Assembly (NCBI GenBank): GCA_049322915.1 | Contig: JBMOPW010000035.1 | Location: 128,001 to 192,000, forward strand | From: Candidatus Zhuqueibacterota bacterium | GTDB lineage: Bacteria > Zhuqueibacterota > Zhuqueibacteria > Thermofontimicrobiales > Thermofontimicrobiaceae | Length of the DNA stretch: 64,000 nucleotides | Direction of reading: 5' to 3' | Part shown: in pieces, positions 23,888 through 40,349 of the stretch | How positions within the stretch are numbered: the stretch's first letter is position 1 | Layout: every line of letters starts with the position of its first letter | Notes under the pieces: generated by a model | Told to the model about the DNA's origin: nothing | Seen by the model: the letters and a program-made list of their open reading frames with translations, nothing else | The model's database searches: none | Position numbers and translations under genes: made by a program

Positions 23888-23889
23888 AA

Positions 23890-24259
23890 TAATTAGAATC
23901 TGTCCGAAAATTGCAAATATTGACCTCACCCCAATCCTCTCCTAAAAGGAGAGGGAGAACAGATGTTCCCCTTCTCCTTCCAGGCGCAGGGTAAGAAGGG
24001 GTTTAGGGGATGAGGTCGGTTGTAATGAAGTTTGAAAATATCACCACAATAGCTAATTTAGGTGTTTTCGGACAGACACTAATTAGCGTCTGTCCGAAAA
24101 CTGATGATTTCAAAGTTTTGTCATTCTGAGCGACCGAAGGGAGCGAAGAATCTGTGACCGCCAAACGCCAAATTTATTTAGACTTAGTGGTCATAGATGT
24201 TTCGTCGCTTCGCTCCTCAACATGACAGTATTAGTTACTTTTCGGACAGACACTAATTA
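23890..24259. mobile_element. Two tandem MITE-like elements with shared ~15-bp terminal inverted repeats, separated and flanked by TAATTA
   Basis: TIRs GAATCTGTCCGAAAA (23896-23910)/TTTTCGGACAGACAC (24065-24079) and GCGTCTGTCCGAAAA (24086-24100)/TTTTCGGACAGACAC (24239-24253); TAATTA at 23890, 24080 and 24254. Confidence 0.75.
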
Positions 24260-24430
24260 GTACTTACCTGAATAAAAATCCTGTTATGCGAATAGCCGGA
24301 GGTCACCCGAAGTTTAAAATTAAAATACCGGTGCCATTGCTCAGAACAATTGCATCGGAGAAAGACGATGCTACACGTTAACGCGCAACGCGTAAAATTC
24401 ATATCCCCTGGAATAAGGAAGGTTTGAAAA

Positions 24431-26977
24431 ATGAGAAATCTTTTTAAATTCCTTACCATTGTTTTAATCGCCGGCTCCGCCAATTCATTGGTTGCCCAGG
24501 AAATGTTCACACGAATACGCAACCAGGAGGTTGTCGGCGCTCGCCCCATGGCCCTCGGTGGGGCATTCGTCGCCCTGGCGGATGACATCAATGCAATTTA
24601 CTGGAATCCTGCCGGCCTGCCGGCCGTGAATCAATTGGGGCTAAATTTCATGTACGCCAATCTCTACGGGACCGGTATCGGAAATAATTATTTCTCCCTT
24701 TGCATTCCGGGGCCGCCCGGGTTAAGTTTTGGCCTCGATTGGATGAGCATCGGTTTCATGGATGAGGAGCTTGAATTCGAAAAAAATAAATTCAACTTTT
24801 CCGCCGGTTACCAGGTTTATGACTGGCTGGCAATTGGATTAAATGCCAGATACCTGCGCATGAACGCTTCCGCCTATCAACTCTCCCAGGGCTCGTTCCA
24901 CGGATGGGGATTCGATTGGGGGTTCATGGCTCGTCTTAACAAGAATTTGAAACTGGGACTGGTTATTCATGATCTCACCGATACAAAGTTGAATGGATTA
25001 GCAGCGCCGGTTTACAGGAGAAGCGTTCGATTCGGCGCAGCTTATAAATTGTTGGATAACCTGGCCTTCCTTTCCGATCTGGATGACCGTTTCCACCTGG
25101 GAACCGAATGGTGGCCCATTTCTGAATTATTGGCGCTAAGAGCCGGAGTCGAGCAGGATTTATATACCAACGAAACAGCAACCATGTCGTTCGGCGTAGG
25201 ACTGGAACTGCCTATCTGGGGACAGTCCTTGCGGCTGGATTACGCCTATATGAATTCTCCAACCTTAATGAGCACGCATCGCACTTCGGTATCATTCCTG
25301 ATCGATCTTTTTCCCCAACTGGTAAAAATTGAAAAGGTGGAAATCGAACCCATTTATGCGTCCCTGTATAAACATCATGCCCATAACCCTGTTGGGACAG
25401 CGTATGTGCGTTATAAGGGCAAGAAAGACCTGAAATGCAAGATCAATTTTTCAGGAAACCGGTACATGAAGGAACACACCAAAAATATCATCCTTCATCC
25501 CAAACCCGGCTCTGAGAATGTGCAGGAAATTTCACTGTACACCGTGTTCGAAGATTCAGTTTTATATGAAACTGACAGCATCCCTTTAAACGCGGACGTG
25601 AAAATTTCCTATGTCAATCGATATCGCCCCTGCAAAGACAGCCTCAGTCAGGAATTCAAGCTTTACAAAAGGAACCTGGTCAACTGGGAGCTTGGGGTTG
25701 ATCAAGCCGCGGCGTTCGTGACCCATGAAGACCCGGTCATCGAGCAATTTGCCCTGGCCGCTCTTTCCGATGGCGCTGTTTCGAAACAACCGTTCATTAT
25801 AAATGAGCAGACGACAAAAGCGCTGTTTTTGTTTAACGCGGTGTCCGGCCATGGCATTCAATACGATGAAGACGCCCAGCCTGTGGAAGGCAACGCCCGG
25901 CTCGGGTTAGACGATATCTGTTACCCGGTGCAGACGCTCAAGGACAGGCGCGGCGATTGTGATGATCTTTCGGTCCTGTTAGCTTCCTTATTTGAAAATC
26001 GAAATATCCCCGTTGCCTTCGTCGATTTTGGGGAGCACATTTCCGTCATTTTCAGCACAGGGGAACACCAGGGTTTGGCATCCAACCTGCCCTATCCCGA
26101 TGATTTATTTTTTCAATATCAAAATGAACTCTGGATTCCCCTGGAAGTGACCTGGATCGATTCGACTTTTTTTCGGGCATGGCAAAAAGGCGCTGCCGAA
26201 ATCACAAAAATCTTTGGGGAGGAGCAATATCGTGTGATTGAAATTCGTAAAGCATGGAATGAATACCAGCCGGTGAACTATGTCAGTCGATTTTTCAGGC
26301 CCATGCCCCTGGCTCAATCCCATTATATTGCATTAAAACAGGATGAGCCAATTCAGCTTAAAACAAATCATCTTTTTAATCTGGAACAGAAGATCACGCT
26401 TCATCCGGACAGCCTGGAATTGCGCAATCAATTAGCCATCAAATATGCCTTTGATAACCAGCGGGATAAAGCCAGAACTCATTTTCAACACATACTTGCC
26501 AGGGATTCGAATAATTTTTCAGCGATAAACAATCTCGGCAATTTATTTATTCTCGAAGGAAGAATAGACTCAGCCGAGACATTTTACCTGAAAGCTCAAC
26601 AATACGCACAAAATTCGGATCAGGTTGATGGCGTGAAATTGAACCTGGGATTGGTATACCTGGCAATCGGCCAGGATAGCCTTGCCATTGATGCGTTCTC
26701 CGAAGTGATGGAACATGAAGAGAACTTACAGAGAATTGCCGACCTGCTGAAGATCAATTTCAATCAGGAAGACTATTCCAAAGGCGATGACGCAAAGCCG
26801 AAAAAACCGGTTTCTAAAAATAGTGTTAAACAGATTTCTGCAAAGGCTAAAACTGAACTCAATGATAAATCTTCCAAGCCGAAAGAGCAGACAAAGCAAA
26901 CGCGGCGTCAGGCCGTGCGAAAAGGAAGTTACCTGGCTCCTGAAAAAATCGACAATGTCTTTTATTGGGCGGAATGA
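24431..26977 (+). CDS. PorV/PorQ(FadL-like) beta-barrel fused to a transglutaminase-like domain and TPR repeats
   Basis: Signal peptide; GARPMALGGAFVALADDINAIYWNPAGL; LRLDYAY...THRTSVSF barrel end; RGDCDDLSVLLASL, GEHISV, WIPLEVT; NNLGNL and LNLGLVY TPRs; Lys-rich tail. Confidence 0.8.
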   Translation: MRNLFKFLTIVLIAGSANSLVAQEMFTRIRNQEVVGARPMALGGAFVALADDINAIYWNPAGLPAVNQLGLNFMYANLYGTGIGNNYFSLCIPGPPGLSFGLDWMSIGFMDEELEFEKNKFNFSAGYQVYDWLAIGLNARYLRMNASAYQLSQGSFHGWGFDWGFMARLNKNLKLGLVIHDLTDTKLNGLAAPVYRRSVRFGAAYKLLDNLAFLSDLDDRFHLGTEWWPISELLALRAGVEQDLYTNETATMSFGVGLELPIWGQSLRLDYAYMNSPTLMSTHRTSVSFLIDLFPQLVKIEKVEIEPIYASLYKHHAHNPVGTAYVRYKGKKDLKCKINFSGNRYMKEHTKNIILHPKPGSENVQEISLYTVFEDSVLYETDSIPLNADVKISYVNRYRPCKDSLSQEFKLYKRNLVNWELGVDQAAAFVTHEDPVIEQFALAALSDGAVSKQPFIINEQTTKALFLFNAVSGHGIQYDEDAQPVEGNARLGLDDICYPVQTLKDRRGDCDDLSVLLASLFENRNIPVAFVDFGEHISVIFSTGEHQGLASNLPYPDDLFFQYQNELWIPLEVTWIDSTFFRAWQKGAAEITKIFGEEQYRVIEIRKAWNEYQPVNYVSRFFRPMPLAQSHYIALKQDEPIQLKTNHLFNLEQKITLHPDSLELRNQLAIKYAFDNQRDKARTHFQHILARDSNNFSAINNLGNLFILEGRIDSAETFYLKAQQYAQNSDQVDGVKLNLGLVYLAIGQDSLAIDAFSEVMEHEENLQRIADLLKINFNQEDYSKGDDAKPKKPVSKNSVKQISAKAKTELNDKSSKPKEQTKQTRRQAVRKGSYLAPEKIDNVFYWAE

Positions 26978-27003
26978 ATTTAGCAGAGTAGAACGGACCC
27001 GGT

Positions 27004-29943
27004 ATGAATGTTTCCCAGTTTACATCGAAGCACATCATCATTGCTGCCTGTATTTGCATGTGCATCGCAGCTTGTCTTGGTTTGCTTTTTGAAAATGTAA
27101 CTTATTTTTATGGCCTCGATGCTGATCTGCTGGACTACCTGATTTTCAAAAATAACAGCCGCAAGCCGTCGGACAAATTATCCCTCATTGTGATTGATGA
27201 TGAAAGCGTCCGTGAATTCGATGACGATAAATCTGCACTCCGCGATCAATATACTTATCTGATACAAAAATTATCGTCGTTCGGAGCTCGTTCCATCGCC
27301 TTTGACCTTTTTTTTGGTGATGGTTCAGAACCGTCAACGGACGCCCGCCTTGCCTTTGTGACAGATTCGACGCGAAAAGTGATTCACAGTTTTTATTTTC
27401 CGGAAAACGGGCCAGGCGGCGAGTATGATTCACTAATAGAATATCAAAAATACGCCATCGAAATCCGGAATGAAAATTACCTGGATATCATCGAGGTGGA
27501 TTATGCCACTTTTCCCAACGCAAATTTTATTGACGCCTTTGATTATGCCGGTTTTGTTTCGTATGAATGCGATAAGGACGGGGCAACCCGGCGCATGCCC
27601 CTGATTTACAAATTTAACGGATTGATTTACCCCTCGTTAACCCTGGCGGCCATGTTCCATTACAATGATATGCAGGTGAAATCCATTCGTATCGAGCGCG
27701 GGACCTGGGGTTTTCAAATGATTATTGATGTGCCGAACAGCCCTGTTCGCATACCAGTGGATAACAAGGGCCAGGCAATGCTGAATTACTATGGGACGTT
27801 CCAGCTCTTCTCCCATCACCCACTTCATAAAACGATTAAACTATTGCAATCAATTCAATGGAACAATGGTTTGGATACGTCGATGCTTCCTTTTCATGAT
27901 CACATTGTTCTGTTTGGAAACACCGAACTCAATGAAGGCGACAGCCATAATACACCCTTTTCGGTTGATTTCCCCGGAGTTGGTCTCCACGCAACGCTGA
28001 TCAGCAATATCCTGAATCATGACTTCCTGGTTGAAGCTCCCTGGTACATCAATTTTCTTGTCACACTGATTTTGCTCATTTTTCTATTTTGTTCCTTCAG
28101 CTATTATTTGAAACATTCAAAATCACAGCTATTCTTTTCTTTCCTCTCGCTCGCCCCGCTGCTGGTGCTAAATTCAGCTTACTATTTTTTTATATTCAAC
28201 AACACAGGAATCTGGCTGAAATTATTTCAGGTGAATTCGATTTTTATGGTTCTGTTTTTCTTCCTGTTATTTTTCGAAAAAATAATTCATCTCAAAAAAT
28301 TGAACCGGGAGATTTCAGATCTGGAAGAAAAACTCCGGAATAAATCCATCGATCTGGACAAAGTCAATGAGCAAGTGCGATTTCAATCGGAGCAATTAAA
28401 GATTGTCACCTATTTTGCCAATGAATTGCGCAATACCTATTCGAGTACCTCGCCGGATGGAACAGAAGTGAAGGATGAATTTATCGGTCACCTGCTGGAA
28501 AATGAAAACATTTTGAAACAGCAGATCGATGCGGAATTGCAGCGGTATAAAATTGAAAAACAGATCCTCGATGCGGAGCTTTTGCAATTGAGAGCGGAGC
28601 GTCAGGCGTTTTTGAACAGGAATATCGAGGTCGAAAAAGTTGGAAAGCAGCCGCCGAGCAACCCGGATAAAACCATACGCTTTCAAAATATCCTGTCATA
28701 TTTGGATTATTTTTATTCCCAGTTGAGATCAGGTCGCCTTAATCAACAGGTCACTATGGGCATCATAGCCGTTCCTTTCTTGAAGACCGAAACCTGTGAA
28801 TTGATGAAAACAGAAATGGGCGAATTATTTGATGAAATAAAAACGATCAGTGCTTTTAAAACGACTGCTCTGATCAATGGCGAGTCCGGCACAGGGAAAG
28901 AACTCATCGCCGATGCAATTCACGAGCAAAGTTCGTTAAAAAACAAGAGAATGGTAAAACTGGATTGCGGTGCAATTCCGGAAACACTCTTGGAGAGCGA
29001 ATTGTTCGGGCATACCAAGGGCGCTTACAGTGGCGCCCACACGGATCGCAAAGGCGCATTTCTTACAGCAGACGGCAGCACCATATTTTTGGACGAAATT
29101 GGCGAGTTGAAATTGGACTTGCAGGCGAAACTGCTTCGCGTAATTCAGGAAAAGACAATCAAAAAAGTAGGCGCTGATACGCCAATTCAGGTTGATGTAA
29201 GAATTATTGCAGCGACGAACCGGGATTTAGCAACAGCCGTGCAAAAAGGTGAGTTTCGCCAGGACTTGTATTATCGCCTCAATGTCGTGAATTTGAAAAT
29301 CCCGCCGCTGAGACAGAGAAGATGGGATGTTCCGTTCCTGATCCATTTCTTTTTATCTCAATATAGTGACAGGTATGGCGAAAAAAAATCCTTTACCGAC
29401 GAAGCGTATAACGCGGCCATGTGTTACGACTGGCCCGGGAATATCAGGGAACTGCAAAATCTAATTGAAAAACTCTACGTCACGTGCCCCAAACAGTTGA
29501 TTGACTTATCTGATTTGACGCCATCGATCCAGACTACCTATCGAGAAATAATGGCAACCGGTGACCAGGCGTGTTGGCATCATATTGGAGATATGGTTCA
29601 AAAAGAAAAAGACCGGTTGCTCGATCTCTGTAAATCTTCCTTAAGATCGAAAAAAGCAAAAACGACTTTTATGCCGTCGGGAATGAATCTGGATGAAGAG
29701 ACAAATTGTTATGACGCCCTGGCATGCTATGTCGATCAACTGGCCACGCTATTCCCACCAGTGAAAAAAGAAGCGCTGGTTCGTTCTGCCATTGTTCAGA
29801 TGCAGGAAGAATTATTTAAATGCTGCCATCAGGAAAAAATTGGGAAATTAAACGAATTGTACCCAGTCATTGAAAAAATTTTAGGCCGCAGTCGGCGCCA
29901 GATTGATAATTGGCGGGGTGATTTGAGTGAAAATTCTGATTAA
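27004..29943 (+). CDS. Membrane-bound sigma54-dependent activator (bEBP) with extracytoplasmic CHASE2 sensor
   Basis: CHASE2 motifs IVIDDES, GARSIAFDLFF, DGATRRMPL, HNTP..PGVGLHA..ISNIL; 3 TM; coiled coil; GESGTGKE, ESELFGH, GAYSGA, IFLDE, RIIAATNRDL, FRQDLYYRL, WPGNIREL; possible terminal HTH. Confidence 0.9.
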   Translation: MNVSQFTSKHIIIAACICMCIAACLGLLFENVTYFYGLDADLLDYLIFKNNSRKPSDKLSLIVIDDESVREFDDDKSALRDQYTYLIQKLSSFGARSIAFDLFFGDGSEPSTDARLAFVTDSTRKVIHSFYFPENGPGGEYDSLIEYQKYAIEIRNENYLDIIEVDYATFPNANFIDAFDYAGFVSYECDKDGATRRMPLIYKFNGLIYPSLTLAAMFHYNDMQVKSIRIERGTWGFQMIIDVPNSPVRIPVDNKGQAMLNYYGTFQLFSHHPLHKTIKLLQSIQWNNGLDTSMLPFHDHIVLFGNTELNEGDSHNTPFSVDFPGVGLHATLISNILNHDFLVEAPWYINFLVTLILLIFLFCSFSYYLKHSKSQLFFSFLSLAPLLVLNSAYYFFIFNNTGIWLKLFQVNSIFMVLFFFLLFFEKIIHLKKLNREISDLEEKLRNKSIDLDKVNEQVRFQSEQLKIVTYFANELRNTYSSTSPDGTEVKDEFIGHLLENENILKQQIDAELQRYKIEKQILDAELLQLRAERQAFLNRNIEVEKVGKQPPSNPDKTIRFQNILSYLDYFYSQLRSGRLNQQVTMGIIAVPFLKTETCELMKTEMGELFDEIKTISAFKTTALINGESGTGKELIADAIHEQSSLKNKRMVKLDCGAIPETLLESELFGHTKGAYSGAHTDRKGAFLTADGSTIFLDEIGELKLDLQAKLLRVIQEKTIKKVGADTPIQVDVRIIAATNRDLATAVQKGEFRQDLYYRLNVVNLKIPPLRQRRWDVPFLIHFFLSQYSDRYGEKKSFTDEAYNAAMCYDWPGNIRELQNLIEKLYVTCPKQLIDLSDLTPSIQTTYREIMATGDQACWHHIGDMVQKEKDRLLDLCKSSLRSKKAKTTFMPSGMNLDEETNCYDALACYVDQLATLFPPVKKEALVRSAIVQMQEELFKCCHQEKIGKLNELYPVIEKILGRSRRQIDNWRGDLSENSD

Positions 29944-29948
29944 TCCAT

Positions 29949-30220
29949 TAAAATTTGGAAATGCTTCCCGGTGAAAATTTCCAAATTTTATTTACTCCAT
30001 ATAAAATCCGTCCCGTTTCCTTCCACCGTATTCCCTTTAATTTTATTGAATTAGTAACGTACCAATATAAAATTCTTTCCCATGAAATTTGGAAATCTCC
30101 TGTTTCCACGCAAATAAAATTCCGCACAACAAATTTTTCTCTTATCCAGTTAATTGCCAATTTATTAACAAATTACATCCTTCAAAAATTTGCAGAAAAG
30201 AAGTTGGCACAGCCTTTGAA
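29949..30220 (+). promoter_or_regulatory. Candidate bEBP enhancer sites and sigma54-like -24/-12 promoter
   Basis: Perfect 14-bp inverted repeat (29949-29962/29977-29990); repeated half-site AAATTTGGAAAT (30085-30096); TGGCAC-AGCCT-TTGAA (30205-30220) with GA in place of GC at -12. Confidence 0.5.
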
Positions 30221-30445
30221 TGAGCCTGATGCGAACATCGCTGATAAATGAAAAGACATCAGACAACAAAGTAGCTATCATTAACGATGATGTTCACGCT
30301 CTTTCGAAATTTATTTAACTCACCCGAATGTTGCAGACTAATTAGAATGGATCGAGTGTCGGGTCAGCCTATTCGCAAAATGGTTCGGCGCTTGTTCCGG
30401 CAACATTCAAAAAATTCTTCATCATTATTTTATTGGAGGTGTATC

Positions 30446-31150
30446 ATGGATACATTCGTTAACCCGATTCCAGGAATCAAACTGGAAAAAATGTTTGCTT
30501 TCGATTTTCCTCTGGGGTCTACTTCTAAGGATTATCAAACTCCCGGATGCAAGCGGAATGTGGATTTGAACAATCCGAATGGCCAGGGCGAAACCCCAAC
30601 ATCTGAGGTTCCAACTCAGGAAGGTATTTATGGCAAGTTGGGCAATCCCAAACGTCACCAGGGATTTCCCTCTGTTATGGAATGGCCCACTCCTGAAGCC
30701 GAAGATCCTGATATGCAAGACCAGATCGTGGATATCGACCGCGAAGCCTGCTTTGACCACACCGGTCGACTGAGCGGCTCGTTCGTGAAATACCTGGTTC
30801 AGGCAAATCATCATTCCAACGTCAAAATGACGGTTGTTCCGTTAACCCATGGAAATGGAAGCCCTGTATTAATTTGGGAGTCTGGTTTTGTGGCTCTTGT
30901 ACCGCAGGCGGCTGGTCCGAATAAGTGGTACTGGGAAGACATTGCCAAGCAGAATGAATTAATTTTCACTGCCCACGCTGTGATCAATCCGCAAAAATGG
31001 CAGTCCCTGAATTTGAAACCGGGCATCTACAAACTGGTTATCAACTGGGAATTTTGGGCAGCCACCGGAAAAGTCAGAGAGAGAATGCCTATTTCCGGAT
31101 TCGATGAATCAGTATCGTTCGAACTCTCTGCTCCGACAATCGATCTGTAA
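30446..31150 (+). CDS. Hypothetical 234-aa cytoplasmic protein, probable beta-rich C-terminal domain
   Basis: GGAGGT RBS 5 nt before ATG 30446; no signal peptide; followed by a terminator hairpin. Confidence 0.7.
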   Translation: MDTFVNPIPGIKLEKMFAFDFPLGSTSKDYQTPGCKRNVDLNNPNGQGETPTSEVPTQEGIYGKLGNPKRHQGFPSVMEWPTPEAEDPDMQDQIVDIDREACFDHTGRLSGSFVKYLVQANHHSNVKMTVVPLTHGNGSPVLIWESGFVALVPQAAGPNKWYWEDIAKQNELIFTAHAVINPQKWQSLNLKPGIYKLVINWEFWAATGKVRERMPISGFDESVSFELSAPTIDL

Positions 31151-31210
31151 AAAAGTGTTCCCATTCTCCCAATCCAGGGTTGATTGTGACGTTTAGTACC
31201 CAAACCAAAT

Positions 31211-31251
31211 ACGGCCATCCATTTCTCCCGATCCGGGCTATGGATGGCCGT
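31211..31251. terminator. Hairpin between convergent genes, probable bidirectional terminator
   Basis: ACGGCCATCCAT / ATGGATGGCCGT perfect 12-bp stem. Confidence 0.7.
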
Positions 31252-31294
31252 CTTAATTTCGAGTCTTCATCACATGAAATTGTGATAAAACAGG

Positions 31295-31519
31295 CTAATT
31301 CAAATTGGTGTAAATGTCCTGGTATTCGGCGGGCGCGTAACGTCCGGTATGATTAACATTCCTCTTTGCATTACGAATGATCACTTGACCGTTACGCCAG
31401 TTTTCCCGAAGTTCATAATTGCAGCGAGGGCAGGTGTAAATAATCCAATCACCATCCCGGGTGGAATCACACGTATGTCTTTCCGGAACAGATGAGGAGC
31501 CATTGTTAAATTCTGTCAT
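31295..31519 (-). CDS. 74-aa putative zinc-ribbon protein
   Basis: GAGGTGG RBS; HTC...CPRC...H candidate metal ligands; convergent terminator downstream. Confidence 0.6.
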   Translation of the reverse strand: MTEFNNGSSSVPERHTCDSTRDGDWIIYTCPRCNYELRENWRNGQVIIRNAKRNVNHTGRYAPAEYQDIYTNLN

Positions 31520-31741
31520 TTTCCACCTCTACTGGTTACTAGTACAGAGTTCTTCACCCAATTATAGCGCATTCCATCCGAGCGTCGAATGCTGAATGCG
31601 CTCTTAAAGACAAGTTAACTTCACATACGCATTTGGTCGTGTCGCTATGGTTCAAAAATTATATCCACGCTTGTTCAATATAATAGATATTTTTTTACTA
31701 AAAATCAAATACTATTTTTGTAATAATAAAGGAATTATATT

Positions 31742-33655
31742 ATGACAGAACATAATATCGCTCCGAAAAACTGGGCTCTGACCTATCGCGCTCTGAACAG
31801 GGCGTTGACTCACTATTCAAACGATCCTGATATTTCCCTCATCGATGTGGGATTTCGGATTCGCACTTCAAATGAAAATCAAATTCTGCCGGAGTTAGCA
31901 GTGAGATTTCATGTCAAAAAGAAGTTGACTGGCGGGGAATTCAGAAATCTGGTGATGCATTTTCCCCATCGGGAGATTGACGCGAACAGGATAGGTTTTG
32001 CCGTCGATGTGATTGAAGCAAACTATTCCTTAAATGCATCAATCCAGGAAACAGATGGTGCGTTGCAACAATTCCAGGAAAATCAAAATCTTCATGGCGG
32101 AATTCGCATCGCCAATTCACAAAATAATCATGCCGGCACATTGGGAGGATTTGTCAGGGATCGCTACTCTGGTACTAATATGATTCTCAGCACCTGGCAT
32201 GTGCTTGCCGGCTCATGGAATACGCAACAGGGAATCCCTGTTTGCCTACCGGCAGATTCAACAGAAAGACGCAATCAGCCTGAGTTTGTTGCTGAATATA
32301 CGAGAAGTGCGATCGCACATCACTTTGACGCCGCAGTGGCATGCTTGAAAAATCAATATAACTGTCATAACAACCAGTCAGGAATCGGGCCTGTGAACGG
32401 GGTGACCGCGCCCCGACTGGGGATGAAAGTAATGAAATCCGGCGCCGGCACAAACGTGACGTCAGGTATCATCACAGGAATATCAGGCTGCCTGGTTCAG
32501 AATTATTATGGGCGCCAGTACTCTATTCGTTCGGTAATTCATATTTTGCCCTTGCAACGAAATACTGAAATGTGCGCTTCCGGTGATTCCGGCGCCTGGT
32601 GGTTGGAACAGTCAACTTCGTACGCTGTGGGCTTGCATATTGCCGGAAATTCAGATGCATCTTCTTCGCTCGCAGTGAATATGCAGGATGTCTTAGATGT
32701 GTTGGAAGTTGATGTCATCACTGAACGCAGCGGGCCTTCATGGCTGCCAAAAGCTACAACTCTTTCAGATAAATCTAAAACTGAAAATAACTATCAATCC
32801 ATTCGTTCTACGCCAGAAGAAAATGAGGCATCGCCAATGAGTCCCGCGATTATAAAATATCAACATCCCGGACAGTTTGTCCCTGTTAATTTTCAATCAA
32901 TTCCTGAGCATACTGCAAAAAGAAACTATCGAAAAATTGTTTTCACAAAGATCGTATTATTATTACACCAAAATATCAGGAGTATAGTCAGGAGTTTTAT
33001 CTATCTATTTTTCTTGTTGATGAGCTACTTCACCGTTTCAAATTTTAATTCCAACAATGAACCAAAACCAGATCAGCTCCTGAATCAAATAAATCATTTG
33101 CATGAGGTGGCACAACAGATTTCAGCCATCCGGCAAATCGATGCACTGCGCGACAGAAGGATCAAAAAGATAGTTTCCATTATTGATAAATACAATGAAC
33201 GAATGGCGCCTGAACTGAAAGTCAGCATCGCCAGTGAGATTTTTGAGATGACCATCAGGTACGAGAATCTCGATATTGAATTGATCTGCGCGACAATTAC
33301 GCATGAAAGCGCCCTGACATGGAATCCTGAAATCGTTTCGCCGGTCGGGGCAATGGGATTGATGCAGATTTTACCCACGACCGGCAGTTACCTGGCTCGC
33401 CAGGAGGGAATTTTAGATTATCAGGCAAAAGAAATACTTTTCAATCCAAATTATAATATTCGTCTCGGCTGCCGCTATTTATCCAATTTAATTGAAGTTT
33501 ACAGCATCGATGGCGGTTTGGCCGCTTATAACGGAGGAATGAAACGAGCTGAAAAATGGGTGCGAAGCGGGCGTGCTGATGGTATTTTGCACGAAGAAAC
33601 GGCGCTCTATGTCCCGTCAATTTTAAAATTTTATGAAATGTTTAAATGTATGTGA
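31742..33655 (+). CDS. Trypsin-like (NAL1-like S1) serine protease fused through a TM helix to a lytic transglycosylase (SLT) domain
   Basis: GTLGGFV, STWHVL (His), DAAVA (Asp), VMKSGAGT.VTSG, SGDSGA (Ser); TM SFIYLFFLLMSYFTV; THES (Glu), GAMGLMQILP, NIRLGCRYL, LAAYNGG, ET..YV. Confidence 0.88.
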   Translation: MTEHNIAPKNWALTYRALNRALTHYSNDPDISLIDVGFRIRTSNENQILPELAVRFHVKKKLTGGEFRNLVMHFPHREIDANRIGFAVDVIEANYSLNASIQETDGALQQFQENQNLHGGIRIANSQNNHAGTLGGFVRDRYSGTNMILSTWHVLAGSWNTQQGIPVCLPADSTERRNQPEFVAEYTRSAIAHHFDAAVACLKNQYNCHNNQSGIGPVNGVTAPRLGMKVMKSGAGTNVTSGIITGISGCLVQNYYGRQYSIRSVIHILPLQRNTEMCASGDSGAWWLEQSTSYAVGLHIAGNSDASSSLAVNMQDVLDVLEVDVITERSGPSWLPKATTLSDKSKTENNYQSIRSTPEENEASPMSPAIIKYQHPGQFVPVNFQSIPEHTAKRNYRKIVFTKIVLLLHQNIRSIVRSFIYLFFLLMSYFTVSNFNSNNEPKPDQLLNQINHLHEVAQQISAIRQIDALRDRRIKKIVSIIDKYNERMAPELKVSIASEIFEMTIRYENLDIELICATITHESALTWNPEIVSPVGAMGLMQILPTTGSYLARQEGILDYQAKEILFNPNYNIRLGCRYLSNLIEVYSIDGGLAAYNGGMKRAEKWVRSGRADGILHEETALYVPSILKFYEMFKCM

Positions 33656-33822
33656 AAAAGCGTCTGATCACGGCAGCACATCGATCGCAAAAACTAATTC
33701 AACTCCCATCGCAGCGGTGGTGGTTTCAGCCGATTGATCGAATCCTAAAAATTTAGGCACAGCAGTTTAATGAAAATACCCCGCTAATCAAACATTCAAT
33801 AAAGTTTTCAGGTATATTCTTC

Positions 33823-33891
33823 ACCGCAATGAGCGCAAAGTAAAAGCAAGGCGCGCAAGGAAAAACTTTGCGCTCGTTGCGCCCTTGCGGT
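33823..33891. repeat. Palindromic element with periodic CGCAAxG / CxTTGCG units
   Basis: GCAATGAGCGCAAAGT (33826-33841) pairs with ACTTTGCGCTCGTTGC (33865-33880); outer ACCGCAA/TTGCGGT. Confidence 0.65.
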
Positions 33892-33933
33892 TAATCTTTT
33901 TTTCATAAACCTGTCATTCGCATTAACTCCAAC

Positions 33934-33962
33934 TTGACTTTTCTGGAATATTTACATATATT
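33934..33962 (+). promoter_or_regulatory. Sigma70-like promoter of the alpha-2-macroglobulin gene
   Basis: TTGACT-17 nt-TATATT; the TTG used as the ORF-track start is this -35 box. Confidence 0.6.
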
Positions 33963-34101
33963 TCATTCAGCCAGGAAATTTAAAAAAACCTGCTCGGAAA
34001 TCAAACATATAATTTGGCTTTTCTATTTTTCCTGTTTTTCCGTGTCATTCGTGGGCAAAAAACTAACAACCCAAAACATCCTTAACCGACGAGGCATTCA
34101 C

Positions 34102-37100
34102 ATGAAAAACGAATCCACACCGAAAGCTTCAAAAAACGCCGGCGAAAAATCACCGCGCAAAGGCGGCGCCAATTTAGTACTACTTTACAGCATCATCGGG
34201 ATACTCTCGGTGGTCATCATCGTCGGAATGGTTTTCATCATTCAACAGAATAAACGGGAAACCGTTCGCATCGAGTCGTTTTCGCCGCGGGACGAAGTGC
34301 AGCAGACTACAAACTTCACCATTACTTTTTCGCGACCGATCATTGCGGATTCAGTCGTGAACAATTGGCTGCCTGATGCGCTCATTTCGTTCCAACCGAC
34401 TATCCCCGGCCGATGGCAATGGATCGGCTCGGACAAAATTCGTTTTTACCCGGATGTGATGCTCCTGCCTTCGACGAATTATTCCGCTCAAATTTCTGCC
34501 GGCCTGCTCGTGCAATATGGTTTTATTTTACGGGGAGAAAAAACTTTCACTTTTTTCACGCCGAAATTCAAAGTCAATAGCTCATCCCTGGTTTTCGAAT
34601 TCATTCCGGAGTCGCAGCAGCAGGTGAAACTGCTGGCCTCCGTGGAATTCAACTACCCGGTCGAGCCCACGGATGTCCTGAAAAACGGGATGCTTCGCTA
34701 CAAAGACGGCAGGAACATTTCTTTCTTTGTGAAAACAACTTCAGCCCAAAAGATCATCGAACTGGAATCCGACCCGATAAAAGAAACCGAGGATGAAAAG
34801 GACATCGAGTTCGTCCTGTCCCGGGATTTGCGGCCGATAGGCGCCAACCTGGGTTTGAGTGAGGACTACACAGCGCCGATCATTTTACCGCGCCAGCAGG
34901 ATTTGAAAGTGGAGCATGTGTCGCCAATCCGCGAATCGGCGCAGCAGGGTTCCATCAAAATTCAATTCAACATGCCCGTGAATCCGAAAACTGCCGGTCA
35001 GTTCATCACTGTGGAGCCGCGACTGAGCTATCAACTGACCGCGTCGCATCATTATCTGCACATCAAAGGTCAGTTTGAAATGGACACAGCATACACCGTA
35101 ACGCTGCGACAGGGCTTGCGAGCTGTGGATGGATCGTCCCTGACGCGCGATTTTACCAGTTCGGTCTCGTTTTTGAAAGAAGATATTCCGCCGCAAATCG
35201 ATTTCGTCGGTGATGGGTTCTATCTCACGCGCAGCGGCTTTCTCAATCTGGGCATGGCGACTATCAATATGGACGAAGTGACGGTTGAAATCGATAAAAT
35301 CTATGCCAACAACATCAACTTTTTATTGAATCAAAATGACCTTGCCGAGAACAGCAGCTATTACTGGTACGACATTCACCAGATGGGAACGCGCATCGCA
35401 GAGTACGATGTGCCCATTGAAAAACTGGTGAACGAAGAAGTCGTCACTCCCATCAACATCGAAAAATATATCAGGAATGAGCATCGCGGCATTTTTAACA
35501 TTGCTGCATTTCATAAGGAACAGCGCTGGATCCGCGCGTCGAAATGGGTGATTGCTACGGACATGGGGATGGTGGCCAAAAAAGCCGGCGGCGATTTATG
35601 GGTGTGGGTGAATTCGCTCGTCTCACTTGCGCCAGTCGCCAACGCGGACATCCAGTTGCTCAGCCAGAACAACCAACTGATTGCGACAAAAAAGACGGAC
35701 GTGAATGGGCTTTGTATGTTCGAAGGCGTCCTCGCCGGCAGCGAAGAATTTCCGCCCTATCTGCTCGTCGCGACGAATGGGGACGATCTGTCCTTTCTGG
35801 AATTGACGCGGCGACAGATTGCCACAACCGATTTTGATGTGGACGGCGCGCTTTATTTGCAGCATGGCTTTGAAGCTTTCCTGTACAATGAGCGGGGCGT
35901 GTACCGGCCGGGCGAAACCGCGCGTCTCGCTGCCATGGTTCGCTGCGAAAATGCATCCGTGCCGGTGCCTTTTCCGGTGATCCTCCGCGTGTTGGGCCCG
36001 GATGAGCGCATTCACGAGGAACAGCGCGCCACGTTGAACGAGCAGGGCGCCGCGGAGTTCGCAGTGGCTTTCCCGGAGTACGTGAAGACTGGAAAATACA
36101 CAGCGCTGCTGCTGGTCGGCGAGAGCGATGAAATTGGCCGCACAAGCTTCAACGTGGAAGAATTCATCCCGGACCGGATGAAAGTCAGCCTGGCTACGGA
36201 TCGGGATGAGTATCGCGCCGGCGCGGAAATGACAGTCGATGTGCAGGGCATGACCCTGTTTGGCCCGCCAGCCTCTGGCAGACTGGTTCAGGCCGACATC
36301 GTCATCGAGCCATTCGAGTTTTCACCAGCGAAATGGAAATCCTACACATTTGGCTGCGATGAGGTCATTTTCAACCGGTTCAAACAGGACTTTGGCGAAG
36401 AATTTCTCGATGAAGACGGTACGCTCAGTTACATCTATTCCATTTCCAGTGAATTAAAAGCGCCATCCTCGTTGCGGGGAATTGTCTCGGCGACCGTGCT
36501 GGAACCCGGCGGCCGCGGCGTGAGCGGGTACAAAGGCGTCATCATTCATCCCTACGAAAGCTACGTCGGGCTGAGACAGGCCAAAGAAGGCTATGCCGAG
36601 CCGCATCGTCCGACCGAAATTCAATTTATCGCTGTCGACACGCAGGGCAATCCGGCGCCCGGTCGGGACATTGAAGTGGCCTGTTACCGGGTGTACTGGC
36701 AGTCCATCCTCAAACGCGTTGACCGGCTGGGCACCTACCGCTACGTCTCTGAAAAAGTGGAAGATCTGGTCCAAAAACTGGAAGTGACATCAGCATCGGA
36801 ACCGGGCGTATTCGCCGTGACGCCGGAAGATTACGGCAGCTATCGGGTCGTCGCCACCGATGTCAGGTCCGGCGCGGTCTCATCCATCACATTTTACGCC
36901 AGCGGTTGGGGCTATTCGCCCTGGGCACTGGACAATCCGGATCGCATCGAGTTAGACCTGGATAAAGAGCGCTACATGCCCGGCGAGACTGCCACCGTGC
37001 AGGTGCGCGCGCCATTTGCCGGCAAATTGCTGCTCACAGTGGAGCGTGAAAAAGTGCTATTCAGCCAGGTTCACACAATGACCGAAAACACCGCTGCGAT

Positions 37101-39564
37101 CAAAGTGCCCATCAAGGCCACGTTCAAACCCAACGTATACATTTCCGCGCATCTCATTCGCTCCACGGAATCGCTGGAGCGGGATACGCCGGTCCGGGCC
37201 TTCGGTGCAACACCACTGTTTTTGGACAATAGCGACAACCAGCTTTCGCTGGAATTGAAAGCGCCGGATGAGATGCGTCCGCTGGGGAAGCTAAGCATCG
37301 AACTGAAAGTGAAAAATAAAACGACCAAAACGCCATTCGTTACCATCGCTGCGGTGGACGAGGGCATCTGCCAACTCACGGAATTCGATACGCCGGATCC
37401 CCATGCGTTTTTCTTCAGCAAGAAGCGGCTCTCCGTGGAAACCGTCGATGTGTACGGCGTGGTTCTGCCGGAAATTGAGTCCGGAAAATCCTCGCCGTCA
37501 GGGGATGTGGAAGCGCAGCGAAAGCGAAGCATCACGCCGGTGAGCGTCACGCGCACGCGGCCGGTGGCCTACTGGTCCGGTCTGCTCAAAACAGACCGCA
37601 GCGGTCGCGCCCGCGTCGAATTCGATATTCCGCAGTTCAACGGCACCATCCGGATCATGGCTGCGGCGTGCGCTGACAACAACTTTGGCAATTTCGAAAA
37701 GAAAGTGCTGGTCCGCGAGCCGATTGTGCTCACGCCGACCTTTCCACGATTTGTAGCCAGCCGGGATCAATTCGTCATCCCGGTCAGTATTTTCAACGGG
37801 ACTGGCAGCGCCGGGACATTCGATGCGACCCTGAACGTGAAGGGCCCGGCCAGACTGATTCAATCCGAAGTGCAGCGAGCCACGATCGCTGCCGGCGCGG
37901 AGGGACAGGTTTTCTTCGAAGTTCAGGCCGACGAGAGCATGGGCGCGCTGGAATTCCGATTGAGCGTTCAGGGCAATGGCAAACAGACCAGCATGGCGAC
38001 GGAAATACCGCTCCGGCCGCCGGTGCCGTTCATCACGCTTTCCGGCCAGGGTTCTGTGAAACAGGGCGCACCGGCGTCGTTTCATTTCCCATCCGAATGG
38101 CTGCCCGGCACCACTGATTTTTCCATCTCTGTTTCATCGTTCCCGGCAGTGCAATTTGCCGGCAGCCTGGGGTATCTGCTCCATTATCCCCACGGCTGCG
38201 TCGAGCAGACCACCTCGCAAGTGTTCCCCCTGCTCTATTTCAGCGATCTGGCGCGGGTTGTCGAGCCGGCGCTGTTCAAACAAAATAGCGCTGAATATTT
38301 CATCGAAGAGGGAATTTCCAAACTGGAGACAATGCAGCAGCCGTCCGGCGCGTTCTCGTACTGGCCGGAAGGCGAATACATCAACAACTGGAGTTCCATT
38401 TACGCTGCGCATTTCCTCGTCGAAGCGAGACGCCTGGGCTATGAAATTTCCAACCGGGTGTACAACAAAATGATCGATGCGCTGGAAAATTTCACGCGGG
38501 ATTATCGCAGCGACGACCGCTATGGCTACGAGACCGCGGTGTACGCCTGCTACGTGCTGGCGCTGGCCAATCAACCCAGTAAAAGCACTATGCTCTACGT
38601 GAAGAACTCCAGCCACGACAAGTTGAGCGCCTATTCCCGCTATCAATTAGCCGGCGCATTCGCTCTGTCCGGCGACATGCAAACCGCGCGGGAGTTGCTG
38701 CCCAGAACTGTGGCCATCTTTCAGTCGGACCGCACCCGGGAGACCGGGCAAAATTTCAATTCGCCAATTCGCGCTCAGGCCATCATGCTCGACATCCTGG
38801 CGGAAGTGGACCCGACTCATCCGTCAGTGCCGGCGCTGATCGAAAGCATCTCTGGCGCTGCTTCGGAAAACGGGCGCTGGGGCACAACCCAGGAGAATGC
38901 GTTTGCGTTTTTAGCCTTGGGCAAAATTTTGAAGAAGCAGGAAAAAGGCAATTACACCGGGAATATCACCATCGACGGCCAAACGCTTTCGGCCATCACC
39001 CAGGACAGCCGGAATTTCTCAGCAAAAGACTGGGCCGGCAAAACAGTCCGCATCGACATACAGGGCCAGGGAACGTGTTACTATTCCTGGCGAGCCGATG
39101 GCATTCCATCGACGCTGCGCATCGATGAATACGATCACGATCTGATGGTGCGCCGCGTTTATTTGAACGAACAGGGAATTCCCATCTCCGGCGCCAGCTT
39201 CGAGCAGGGGGACATGGTGATCGCGAAAATCACGGTGAAGGCGCTCACGGAGTCGCTGGAGAATGTCGCCATTGTCGACATGCTGCCAGCAGGACTGGAG
39301 ATCGAAAATCCGAGGCTGCAATCGCGCAAGGGCATTCAGTGGATCGATCAAAATGAGCCGATCCCAACCTACATGGATATTCGCGACGACCGCATGATTA
39401 TGTACGGCAATTTTCCATTGGGTCGCGAAACGACCTTCTACTATGGATTGCGGGCAGTGGCCGAAGGATCGTTCATTCTCCCGCCCATTCGCGCCGAAGC
39501 CATGTACGCGCCCATGAAGGCGTCGGTGGCGTCGAGCGGCAACATTGTCGTTCGAAAACCGTGA
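34102..39564 (+). CDS. Bacterial alpha-2-macroglobulin (thioester-containing)
   Basis: ERGVYRPGE, VEEFIPDR, AAVDEGI, thioester motif YPHGCVEQTTS, WGTTQENA, DMLPAGLEIEN, RDDR, AEAMY; N-terminal TM anchor; GAGG RBS. Confidence 0.95.
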   Translation: MKNESTPKASKNAGEKSPRKGGANLVLLYSIIGILSVVIIVGMVFIIQQNKRETVRIESFSPRDEVQQTTNFTITFSRPIIADSVVNNWLPDALISFQPTIPGRWQWIGSDKIRFYPDVMLLPSTNYSAQISAGLLVQYGFILRGEKTFTFFTPKFKVNSSSLVFEFIPESQQQVKLLASVEFNYPVEPTDVLKNGMLRYKDGRNISFFVKTTSAQKIIELESDPIKETEDEKDIEFVLSRDLRPIGANLGLSEDYTAPIILPRQQDLKVEHVSPIRESAQQGSIKIQFNMPVNPKTAGQFITVEPRLSYQLTASHHYLHIKGQFEMDTAYTVTLRQGLRAVDGSSLTRDFTSSVSFLKEDIPPQIDFVGDGFYLTRSGFLNLGMATINMDEVTVEIDKIYANNINFLLNQNDLAENSSYYWYDIHQMGTRIAEYDVPIEKLVNEEVVTPINIEKYIRNEHRGIFNIAAFHKEQRWIRASKWVIATDMGMVAKKAGGDLWVWVNSLVSLAPVANADIQLLSQNNQLIATKKTDVNGLCMFEGVLAGSEEFPPYLLVATNGDDLSFLELTRRQIATTDFDVDGALYLQHGFEAFLYNERGVYRPGETARLAAMVRCENASVPVPFPVILRVLGPDERIHEEQRATLNEQGAAEFAVAFPEYVKTGKYTALLLVGESDEIGRTSFNVEEFIPDRMKVSLATDRDEYRAGAEMTVDVQGMTLFGPPASGRLVQADIVIEPFEFSPAKWKSYTFGCDEVIFNRFKQDFGEEFLDEDGTLSYIYSISSELKAPSSLRGIVSATVLEPGGRGVSGYKGVIIHPYESYVGLRQAKEGYAEPHRPTEIQFIAVDTQGNPAPGRDIEVACYRVYWQSILKRVDRLGTYRYVSEKVEDLVQKLEVTSASEPGVFAVTPEDYGSYRVVATDVRSGAVSSITFYASGWGYSPWALDNPDRIELDLDKERYMPGETATVQVRAPFAGKLLLTVEREKVLFSQVHTMTENTAAIKVPIKATFKPNVYISAHLIRSTESLERDTPVRAFGATPLFLDNSDNQLSLELKAPDEMRPLGKLSIELKVKNKTTKTPFVTIAAVDEGICQLTEFDTPDPHAFFFSKKRLSVETVDVYGVVLPEIESGKSSPSGDVEAQRKRSITPVSVTRTRPVAYWSGLLKTDRSGRARVEFDIPQFNGTIRIMAAACADNNFGNFEKKVLVREPIVLTPTFPRFVASRDQFVIPVSIFNGTGSAGTFDATLNVKGPARLIQSEVQRATIAAGAEGQVFFEVQADESMGALEFRLSVQGNGKQTSMATEIPLRPPVPFITLSGQGSVKQGAPASFHFPSEWLPGTTDFSISVSSFPAVQFAGSLGYLLHYPHGCVEQTTSQVFPLLYFSDLARVVEPALFKQNSAEYFIEEGISKLETMQQPSGAFSYWPEGEYINNWSSIYAAHFLVEARRLGYEISNRVYNKMIDALENFTRDYRSDDRYGYETAVYACYVLALANQPSKSTMLYVKNSSHDKLSAYSRYQLAGAFALSGDMQTARELLPRTVAIFQSDRTRETGQNFNSPIRAQAIMLDILAEVDPTHPSVPALIESISGAASENGRWGTTQENAFAFLALGKILKKQEKGNYTGNITIDGQTLSAITQDSRNFSAKDWAGKTVRIDIQGQGTCYYSWRADGIPSTLRIDEYDHDLMVRRVYLNEQGIPISGASFEQGDMVIAKITVKALTESLENVAIVDMLPAGLEIENPRLQSRKGIQWIDQNEPIPTYMDIRDDRMIMYGNFPLGRETTFYYGLRAVAEGSFILPPIRAEAMYAPMKASVASSGNIVVRKP

Positions 39565-39565
39565 T

Positions 39566-39632
39566 GGTGAAAAGTAAATTGGTGAGTTGTGAGTGGTAAA
39601 ATTGTGATTGGTGAAGGTGAACTGGTGAGCGG
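39566..39632. repeat. Degenerate short tandem repeats (TGGTGA/TTGTGA units)
   Basis: GGTGAAAAGTAAATTGGTGAGTTGTGAGTGGTAAAATTGTGATTGGTGAAGGTGAACTGGTGAG between convergent stops. Confidence 0.6.
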
Positions 39633-39977
39633 TTAGATGTAGATCAAATTGTTGACCATTTCATCTGCTGTTAACTCATTCAGGATTGATAGAATTCTTG
39701 GAAGAAGTTCGTATACGGGCCGTCTGTTTGCAATGATGATGCCAGAATGGGACCAGTTGTTTTTCAAAAAGTGAGAATGCATTTCTTCAAAATGTTTCCT
39801 ATTATGCGTCAGGATGCAGCGGCCTTGCAAGACAGCGAATGCAAGCTGTTCGGGATCGTCTTTTGCCAACATCTCAGAATCGAGCGCCGTTATCGCGTTG
39901 AACCCTCTTGCCTGGAGAATTTTCACTAACAGTACAGAAACATCTTCGTCCAAATATAACTCGATGAAAAGTTTCAA
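39633..39977 (-). CDS. DUF5615 PIN-like toxin
   Basis: LYLDEDV, DPEQLAFA...ILTHNRKHF, HSGIII; ATGA overlap with the DUF433 gene. Confidence 0.85.
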   Translation of the reverse strand: MKLFIELYLDEDVSVLLVKILQARGFNAITALDSEMLAKDDPEQLAFAVLQGRCILTHNRKHFEEMHSHFLKNNWSHSGIIIANRRPVYELLPRILSILNELTADEMVNNLIYI

Positions 39978-40267
39978 GATTGTCCCTTTAGAATCGGATG
40001 TATTTTATCTTCAGGCACATGATTCTCTTCGATGTATGTATTTATTTCATCTTGATTCTCGCTGTAGAAACCCAGCGCATCGAAAATTTGGGCGAGAGAA
40101 ATATGGGGAAGATGCACAGGAATTTCTTCCGGTTGAACGCCGGTTCGCCACAGTTCAACAATAGCGCGCACCGTTGTTTTCGTCCCGGAAATAATCGGTT
40201 CGCCTTTGCATATTTTGGGGTTTCGCGAGATGTATGGATGGATGATTTTTTTGGCGGCTTGTTCCAT
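39974..40267 (-). CDS. DUF433 antitoxin
   Basis: ISRNPKICKGEPIISGTKTTV...EEI...ISLAQIFDALGFY. Confidence 0.9.
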   Translation of the reverse strand: MEQAAKKIIHPYISRNPKICKGEPIISGTKTTVRAIVELWRTGVQPEEIPVHLPHISLAQIFDALGFYSENQDEINTYIEENHVPEDKIHPILKGQS

Positions 40268-40349
40268 TTTTCATTTTTCATTTGGATTAATTTTCACTTT
40301 GAAAATAAATTTATTATTTTAATTTTCAAAATGCAAGTTTAAATTTGAA

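Follow-up and report, generated by a model that had tools for sequence, protein, structure and literature searches.

Two kinds of described protein bear on the gene reported here: the rice serine protease NAL1 and the membrane-anchored lytic transglycosylases of family 1. As described in PMC12012508, NAL1 has a serine protease domain (triad His234, Asp291 and Ser385) that comes after a domain which binds ATP; it forms a hexameric cage from two trimers, the free trimer being inactive, and it acts on transcription regulators in a manner that requires assembly. The gene in question lies at positions 31742–33655 on the forward strand of a 64,000-nucleotide stretch of DNA from Candidatus Zhuqueibacterota bacterium (GenBank assembly GCA_049322915.1, contig JBMOPW010000035.1), the whole of which is referred to below as the window. 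It encodes a protein of 637 residues that begins with a NAL1-type protease unit and ends with an SLT lytic transglycosylase domain; between the two lie a tether, a single predicted transmembrane helix and a helical stalk. The SLT family membership and the NAL1-type homology are of known kinds; it is their combination across the membrane that is rare.

Like NAL1 (PDB entries 7Y77, 8PMG/8PMM and 8HAS–8HAU; PMC12012508), the fusion has an N-terminal domain and a chymotrypsin-fold core with a His/Asp/Ser triad, and its protease unit, predicted to be intracellular, likewise has no signal peptide. It differs from NAL1 in being just 16–19% identical in sequence, in missing the first ~88 residues of NAL1 and in being tethered to a membrane helix and a predicted periplasmic enzyme. 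With the membrane-anchored family 1 lytic transglycosylases (the Slt70 catalytic domain, MltC, EmtA and the free transmembrane–SLT proteins of its own phylum) it has the SLT motifs in common. The last of these, which are ~240 residues long, also carry the same signal-anchor helix and stalk, at 48–53% identity. Unlike these enzymes, the fusion has a predicted cytoplasmic extension of 414 residues that contains a protease; we know of no characterized member of the family with such an extension, and none was found in the literature searched. Lytic transglycosylases are dangerous enzymes whose control is poorly understood, and the cytoplasmic control known for them is exerted by separate partners, FtsEX among them. 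If the interpretation given below is correct, one polypeptide joining such an enzyme to a cytoplasmic cage-type protease would be a new and simple coupling across the membrane.

A looser likeness, by analogy only, is to BlaR1 and MecR1 and to Ssy5, in which an extracytoplasmic domain that faces the wall or a ligand is connected with an intracellular protease whose targets are transcription regulators. BlaR1 is a zinc protease of four helices whose sensor binds penicillin, and Ssy5, from yeast, is a separate soluble protein. The fusion differs from these in that its outer domain is apparently an active enzyme, and in having one helix and a disordered tether.

The reading frame

The open reading frame of 637 codons and a stop runs uninterrupted from an ATG across 31742–33655 (+), and the opposite strand of this interval is closed by many stops. 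A first-pass annotation, made from the DNA sequence alone, had described a single gene fusing a NAL1-like, trypsin-type protease to a lytic transglycosylase. The position that it gave was confirmed exactly, and the motifs TWHV, DAAV, GDSG, THES, GLMQ and AYNGG were located at residues 151, 196, 281, 520, 539 and 595, respectively. The public gene call for the locus (P0002, 566 residues) begins at Met72 and thereby loses 71 N-terminal residues (window 31742–31954). Because these residues are conserved in homologues, in which Asp28, Asp35, Gly37, Leu52, Arg55 and His57 are invariant, the longer start is taken to be correct.

An assembly artefact or a lost stop codon, which the first-pass annotation had left as a way in which the fusion might be spurious, is ruled out by conserved full-length homologues in many independent assemblies, and for this reason we regard the fusion as genuine; 26 such homologues align with the protein end to end, over 97–100% of its length. 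That annotation had also envisaged read mapping across the junction. The gene is spanned, as one contig and with zero variants, solely by the probable source run; in three other sequencing runs there are fragments of 196–250 bases within the gene, none of which bridges the domain junction, and the reads give no independent support for the junction. No RNA data set is listed as containing the gene.

The NAL1-type protease unit

Residues 1–329 contain two parts. The first is an N-subdomain (residues 1–100; window 31742–32041, +), which by profile alignment matches residues 117–237 of NAL1, within the N-terminal part that binds ATP in that protein, and which is always retained in the degenerate fusions described below. 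The second is a chymotrypsin-fold protease core (residues ~118–329; 32093–32728, +), assigned from Foldseek matches and a conserved triad, the codons of which are at 32198–32200 (His153), 32327–32329 (Asp196) and 32588–32590 (Ser283), all on the forward strand. The complete S1 triad reported in the first-pass annotation is thus present in its TWHV, DAAV and GDSG motifs.

The full protein matched neither of the Pfam models NAL1_N (PF25608) and Nal1_C (PF25819) at E ≤ 1, and the only Pfam match on its N-terminal half was a sub-threshold one to Peptidase_S64 (20.6 bits). Residues 1–335 were also aligned with 38 free-standing relatives of ~350–410 residues. Among the resulting 39 sequences, 32 weakly match NAL1_N and nine Nal1_C, nearly all under the curated cut-offs, and 13 have weak matches to Peptidase_S64, the family of Ssy5. 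When the profile of this alignment was searched against the PDB it recovered nine distinct rice NAL1 chain sequences, with E values from 1.4e-13 to 3.8e-12, followed by alpha-lytic protease and streptogrisin at E values of 4e-4 and weaker. An AlphaFold2 model built from 27 full-length sequences has a mean pLDDT of 80.7, and in it residues 1–329 form a confident domain of high pLDDT. Foldseek searches with this model placed NAL1 chains at the top (E 1e-16, ~365 aligned columns, TM-score by target 0.56–0.63), followed by the S1 proteases alpha-lytic protease and SGPB (E 1e-10). Profile, Pfam NAL1_N matches in relatives and Foldseek all point to NAL1, and in terms of homologous fold and family the protease is rightly described as NAL1-like, though the protein passes no Pfam NAL1 model.

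In the profile alignment His153 and Ser283 align with the HHV and GDSG motifs of NAL1, while Asp196 is probably the counterpart of NAL1 Asp291, judging from its position and not from an alignment. The ATP and Mg contacts of NAL1 (PMC12012508), Arg120, Arg122, Lys139 and Asp166, map in the profile alignment onto Arg39, Arg41, Lys61 and Asp89 of the fusion. This predicted site is partly retained among 27 aligned fusions (Arg39 in 20, Arg41 in 19, Lys61 in 20 and Asp89 in 21), and Lys61 and Asp89 are invariant in 39/39 free relatives. A complex prediction for three copies of residues 1–330 gave a score of 0.00, which is under the mark and counts neither way.

The lytic transglycosylase domain

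The SLT domain, of family 1, occupies residues 490–636 (33209–33649, +) and was assigned from Pfam and from structures. The Pfam SLT model (PF01464) matches residues 505–611 with 67 bits against a cut-off of 21.3 (E 1.4e-18), and NCBIfam gave partial matches to several lytic transglycosylases, none of them at cut-off. The domain is confident in the AlphaFold2 model, its structure matches are to Slt70, MltC and EmtA (E from 3e-16 to 1e-8), and Glu522 (codon 33305–33307) is aligned with the active-site region of Slt70. The catalytic motifs are represented by Glu522 and Ser523, Gly539–Gln542 and Ala595–Gly599, which we take to be the Glu-Ser, GLMQ and AYNxG motifs of family 1 lytic transglycosylases, and the THES, GLMQ and AYNGG sequences noted at first pass are intact. 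The residues Glu522, Gly539, Met541, Gln542, Tyr596 and Gly599 are invariant in the fusions.

Tether, membrane helix and topology

Between the protease and the membrane lies a disordered tether rich in Ser, Pro, Thr and Asn (residues 330–398; 32729–32935, +), for which the model has pLDDT values below 50. With nine Ser and eight Pro in 69 residues it is the Ser/Pro-rich linker of the first-pass annotation. Across the family it is unconserved and 24–131 residues long, and no conserved cleavage site was found in it in the alignment of 27 fusions. Because a disordered tether cannot transmit a conformational change, the two ends of the protein would be coupled solely via proximity or assembly.

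The tether is followed by a basic stretch and a single predicted signal-anchor transmembrane helix (residues ~415–437; 32984–33052, +), in agreement with the first-pass description. The 19-residue Kyte–Doolittle mean of the segment from residue 415 is 1.67, compared with 1.09 for the next-best window of that length, and the segment is the top-scoring one at the same alignment position in 25 of the 27 family members. No signal-like segment was found at the N-terminus, near which the best 12-residue mean is 0.13; the earlier statement that there is no signal peptide therefore stands. In the AlphaFold2 model helices span residues 397–438 and 443–484, the second of which is the helical stalk (33068–33193, +), predicted to be periplasmic. 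The stalk is common to the free transmembrane–SLT paralogues, whose tblastn matches begin at query residues ~410–450. SAR endolysins, muralytic enzymes of phage lysis cassettes, carry an N-terminal, weakly hydrophobic and Gly/Ala-rich anchor that is releasable. The anchor of the fusion differs from these in being internal, after 414 residues predicted to be cytoplasmic, and in being rich in Phe, Leu, Ile and Tyr, and no phage genes were found among the annotated neighbours in the window.

From the sequence we infer that the protease is cytoplasmic and the SLT domain periplasmic. The positive-inside argument advanced at first pass holds for the window protein, in which the 25 residues before the helix carry charges of +7/−0 and the 25 after it +1/−3, but the bias is mixed across the family (for example, +3/−3 versus +6/−2 in P0020). 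The topology therefore rests mainly on domain logic, namely that the same transmembrane–SLT module occurs in proteins of ~240 residues with a short basic N-terminal tail and that the free NAL1-type relatives have no signal peptide.

Conservation and distribution

A word-indexed search recovered full-length relatives at 36–63% identity, with E values from 1e-106 to 1e-259. The alignment of 27 fusions referred to above consists of the query and 26 homologues from rows P0003–P0032 of this search, at 38–63% identity. P0002 was left out as a shorter call of the window's own locus, P0024 as short at the N-terminus, and P0008, P0019 and P0030 for their low coverage in BLAST. The N-domain, a tether that varies, the hydrophobic helix and an SLT domain are common to all 27 sequences. 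In an exhaustive HMMER search, 257 of 1.84 billion representatives matched below 1e-30. Among the best 150 of these 257, 25 are 520–760 residues long and score at least 539 bits (one being the window's own cluster) and two more are 564 residues long; the fusion amounts to ~25 clusters at 50% identity among the 1.84 billion representatives, every one of them from records with a KSB1 or Calditrichota label.

A genome search with C-terminal patterns, in one genome per species, returned 210 relatives, of which 80 were kept. The 80 loci comprise eight full fusions (565–688 residues), two shortened ones (475 and 393 residues) and 70 transmembrane–SLT proteins of 213–298 residues. The record titles name candidate division KSB1, Caldithrix/Calditrichaeota and some bins whose labels are evidently wrong. 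The fusion is a rare architecture, limited to a single uncultured lineage. No published account of it was found in the literature searched, judged from search listings alone, which likewise contained nothing relevant on bacterial NAL1 homologues, on protease–lytic transglycosylase fusions, on DUF4332 with a protease, or on CHASE2, CHAT and sigma-54. The first-pass annotation had allowed that the architecture might prove to be common and characterized, and this is not what was found.

Constraint, degenerate forms and origin

The two enzymes are not constrained alike. Glu522 of the lytic transglycosylase is invariant in all 27 fusions. In the protease, Asp196 and Ser283 are invariant in 27/27 fusions and 39/39 free relatives, but the catalytic His is kept in only 21 of the 27 fusions, compared with 39/39 free relatives. 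It is replaced by Gln in P0009, by Asn in P0023, by Arg in P0027 and by Ser in P0028, P0029 and P0032, and four of these six proteins also have GNSG or GSSG in place of GDSG. In the two shortened fusions the protease core is deleted and the N-subdomain is retained at up to 50% identity: the form of 393 residues (locus L016) corresponds to query residues 10–90 joined to 294–635, and that of 475 residues (locus L006) to residues 5–98, at 50% identity, joined to 221–635. At both of these loci an intact free NAL1-type gene lies two genes upstream of the shortened fusion.

The genome from which the window comes (96% complete) contains one fusion and two free transmembrane–SLT paralogues. The latter are 53% and 48% identical to the fusion over residues 420–635 and have a short basic N-terminal tail with the helix directly after it. 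Such free paralogues sit in ordinary contexts, for example beside ParA-like and FtsZ genes or transporters. The fusion arose by the joining of a NAL1-type protease paralogue to the short cytoplasmic tail of an ordinary transmembrane–SLT protein, of ~240 residues, of the phylum. In a quick maximum-likelihood tree, midpoint-rooted, all 61 free NAL1-type proteins group together in a single clade (SH-aLRT 91), and the fusion N-domains lie outside it; one mislabelled long branch in this tree is the shortened L016 fusion. The fusion may have a single origin. Separate genes for the two domains in relatives had been named at first pass as grounds for doubting that the fusion is real; both halves do exist as free proteins, but the fusion itself is conserved.

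Proposed role of the fusion

The interpretation that we favour, with a probability of roughly 0.4, is that the cytoplasmic unit is an assembly or docking module which positions or clusters the lytic transglycosylase, and that the outcome is regulated local remodelling of the wall rather than suicide. The fusion would be a bitopic inner-membrane protein with the NAL1-type unit in the cytoplasm and a predicted-active family 1 lytic transglycosylase in the periplasm. The cytoplasmic unit, and above all its N-subdomain, would associate with itself or dock partners of the NAL1 type, in the manner of the trimer and hexamer cage that NAL1 forms, and the resulting assembly would gather or position lytic transglycosylase domains across the membrane. 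In this way local cutting of peptidoglycan would be linked with a proteolytic or regulatory module in the cytoplasm, probably under a neighbouring envelope sensor, a CHASE2 domain fused to a sigma-54 activator. The oligomerization, the direction of the coupling and the regulatory link are what we infer here. Our preference is founded on the observations that the lytic transglycosylase is the invariantly active part, that the core is sometimes lost and the N-subdomain always kept, that other phyla encode the N-subdomain as a separate partner of the protease, and that NAL1 works only when assembled. An oligomerization-driven wall-remodelling switch had been part of the first-pass proposal; that part is plausible and overlaps with the reading favoured here, whereas its lysis part has no positive support.

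Several observations weigh against this interpretation. The fused protease of the window is catalytically intact, and neither a free NAL1-type partner nor the proteins X (with a helix-hairpin-helix motif) and hypA, which accompany such partners elsewhere, were found in the window's genome, which does have a weak NAL1-like match (E 7e-6) on another contig. Pure docking is thus less natural here than in the relatives, and the window copy, being both intact and alone, would need to assemble with itself, the point at which the interpretation is weakest. The N-domain is, moreover, patchy in its distribution. A search by the N-domain only found it in 22 of the 167 genomes of the phylum (E ≤ 1e-10), with fusion-length open frames of 571–775 residues in 12; without the unpublished genomes G158 and G162, which are included in these numbers, the counts are 20/165 and 10. 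It was not found in a genome of the same genus that is 94% complete. Such patchiness also fits an accessory conflict gene. The mixed charge bias described above also counts against the interpretation. The CHASE2–sigma-54 activator adjoins the fusion at just four of the ten other fusion loci, and the sequence 5' of the fusion, scanned in the window and at these ten loci, showed no consistent sigma-54-type promoter (GG-N10-GC). The single near-consensus site in the window (30205–30220, +; one mismatch), a −24/−12 type element just downstream of the activator gene, lies 5' of an open reading frame that begins at 30287 and not of the fusion.

A simpler explanation would be a fusion of convenience, in which the two enzymes are independent and the transmembrane–SLT part merely anchors the protease at the membrane, or the reverse. 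Free, functional-looking families exist for both halves and the tether is long and unconserved, as might be expected on this explanation. On the other hand, the fusion has been kept at 38–63% identity across many genera, and the degenerate forms, in keeping the N-subdomain on the transmembrane–SLT part, argue for selection on the physical link. We consider a mere anchored protease beside an ordinary lytic transglycosylase improbable; were it correct, the protein would be a curiosity of one uncultured phylum.

We also think it quite doubtful, if attractive, that the fusion serves as the membrane-bound part of a proteolytic switch, so far undescribed, that spans the envelope. Its N-subdomain would then dock or nucleate a cytoplasmic cage protease beneath the peptidoglycan cutter and so couple the state of the wall to regulated proteolysis, one possible output being release of the membrane-tethered CHASE2–sigma-54 activator encoded next door. 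Bacteria would then have their own equivalent of receptor-activated proteolysis, connected to the cell wall.

Free NAL1-type proteases and their cassette

The free NAL1-type family is broad, with labels that include Chloroflexota-type bacteria (Anaerolineae, Roseiflexus and others), Deinococcales and Blastocatellia as well as cyanobacteria, Actinomycetota and Proteobacteria. In several phyla its members were observed in a cassette that recurs and is unannotated (L085–L164; for example, L089:2155–7314). The cassette consists of a SARP-type regulator (Trans_reg_C and BTAD domains in 8/8 scanned), a protein of ~230–280 residues without a known family that we call hypA, the NAL1-type protease, a separate copy of the protease's N-subdomain of ~80–95 residues, and a protein of ~300 residues with a helix-hairpin-helix motif that we call X. 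Clustering grouped 24 small open reading frames (<130 residues) with the NAL1 family, and the 12 that were inspected are N-subdomain copies. Gene order was counted in 80 loci of free NAL1-type proteases, many of them truncated where a contig ends. On the forward strand, hypA is followed by the protease in 45 of these, and the protease by X, with or without the small open reading frame between them, in 37; the order hypA, protease, (small frame), X is found in 31 and the order regulator, hypA, protease in 19. A separate observation is a metagenomic protein of 921 residues (P0098) that joins a NAL1-type protease unit with a P-loop NTPase of the KAP family, another fusion of the effector or sensor type in this family.

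The N-domain of the fusion belongs to the same protein family as the proteases of this cassette, which occurs in Chloroflexota, Deinococcota, Acidobacteriota, Cyanobacteria, Actinomycetota and others and is itself uncharacterized. In KSB1-type loci the two come together: at L002, L003, L006 and L016 the order is hypA, NAL1-type protease, X and, last, the fusion (L001 is cut), and X is directly upstream of the fusion at eight of the ten fusion loci. The window's genome differs, hypA, X and a free protease not having been found in it. The homology links the plant yield protein NAL1 with a large set of bacterial cassettes that are unstudied and come with regulators of their own, and because the N-subdomain outlasts the catalytic core, the KSB1 fusions offer a handle on the docking targets of NAL1-type proteases.

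These cassettes also bear on the possibility that signalling runs from outside to inside. The SLT domain would engage or cut peptidoglycan and cluster the protein, and clustering would assemble an active NAL1-type protease that cleaves a regulator, the candidate substrates being the adjacent membrane-tethered CHASE2–sigma-54 activator or, in relatives, the helix-hairpin-helix protein. Such a scheme would be akin to that of yeast Ssy5 or of BlaR1. Free NAL1-type genes do occur with the SARP-type regulator (8/8 scanned) and with the helix-hairpin-helix protein (37/80 loci), the activator is conserved beside the fusion, and the weak Peptidase_S64 matches in 13 of the 39 relatives are to the Ssy5 family. 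NAL1 itself acts on transcription regulators and needs assembly (PMC12012508). Yet the invariance of the SLT Glu and motifs in 27/27 fusions points to a working enzyme and not to a mere sensor, and the protease, which would be the output, has no catalytic His in six of the 27 fusions and no core in two further forms. Nor was a conserved substrate gene found beside the window's copy. We regard signalling in this direction as unlikely.

Genomic neighbourhood

The gene for the CHASE2–sigma-54 activator (27004–29943, +; 979 residues; Pfam CHASE2 and Sigma54_activat) has full-length orthologues beside the fusion at L002, L003, L005 and L006. It is preceded by the gene for a protein of 848 residues (24431–26977, +), to which domain scans assign an N-terminal barrel like those of PorV/PorQ and TPR repeats. 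Orthologues of this protein, 43–46% identical, occupy the same position at L003 and L005, where the order with the activator is kept. They have weak, sub-threshold transglutaminase-like matches, of which none was found on the window's protein. Between the activator and the fusion lies a gene for a hypothetical protein (30287–31150, +), which probably starts at Met54 and has no Pfam, NCBIfam or PADLOC match; it is 67% identical to the product of the gene upstream of the L005 fusion and 39% identical to one at L068. A relationship of this protein to X or hypA was considered and rejected, the hhalign probabilities being 0.1–0.3%, and a Protein Atlas look-up gave sub-threshold leads only. Also upstream in the window are genes for a protein of 668 residues without a known family and an open reading frame of 98 residues. 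Regulators and envelope proteins make up the conserved neighbours of the fusion, among which there is no known defence gene.

A search of the whole window for the sigma-54 consensus TGGCAC-N5-TTGCW with up to two mismatches found 31 sites against 35.5 expected, which is not above chance, and a generic promoter and terminator scan of 29900–34000 was not above shuffled sequences. The G+C content is 0.42–0.47 over 18–34 kb, at least 0.50 over most of 34–64 kb and 0.43–0.55 upstream; the low-G+C block at 18000–34000 may be an acquired island, or simply a run of AT-rich genes.

The first-pass interpretation included a holin-independent self-lysis switch, which would resemble abortive infection: a cytoplasmic trigger would activate the protease, and self-cleavage or assembly would unleash the wall-lytic domain, so that the cell dies. 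An accessory gene would suit such a role, and this one is patchy (N-domain in 22/167 genomes; not found in the genome of the same genus) and sits in the stretch of lower G+C. NAL1-type units are fused elsewhere to effector-like or NTPase modules, as in P0098 with its KAP NTPase, and CHAT–TPR proteins are encoded nearby both in the window and at L006. Against this, PADLOC-DB 2.0 (E ≤ 0.01) gave no match for the fusion or for the hypothetical neighbours scanned. The catalytic His is dispensable in six of the 27 fusions, the tether has no conserved cleavage motif and a highly variable length, and the lytic transglycosylase module shares ~50% identity with ordinary paralogues that have housekeeping surroundings (ParA-like, FtsZ, transporters). 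A tethered lytic transglycosylase, moreover, already faces the wall, so that it is hard to see what would be unleashed, and the bulky hydrophobic helix is unlike the Gly/Ala-rich anchors of release-type SAR endolysins. Taken with neighbours that are regulators and envelope proteins, these observations make a self-lysis or conflict role improbable in our view, and local wall remodelling through an assembly module remains the interpretation that we prefer.

In the same PADLOC scan seven of the 11 other proteins examined were likewise without a match. The matches obtained were a weak one to DrmC (E 0.006) on the 98-residue open reading frame, three RtcR-type models on the AAA+ part of the sigma-54 activator and a generic TPR model (E 2.4e-7) on the CHAT–TPR protein. 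This last protein, of 1110 residues, is encoded at 14924–21688 together with a following protein of 1069 residues that has Reg_prop repeats, a ZU5 domain and a sorting tail of the type IX secretion system; a CHAT–TPR protein is also found near the fusion at L006.

Directly downstream of the fusion (33934–42683) are genes for an alpha-2-macroglobulin of 1876 residues and then a PBP1C-type penicillin-binding protein. These two form a classic pairing. They were rejected as functional partners of the fusion, tblastn having found them in 0/80 loci. Between the hypothetical gene and the fusion there is an open reading frame of 74 residues with Cys pairs (31295–31519, −), which may not be a gene and has a weak match, below cut-off, to VdcD. 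At L003 the region downstream of the fusion (L003:12608–21180) encodes a multi-domain surface protein sorted by the type IX secretion system and an RHS-repeat protein of 1623 residues.

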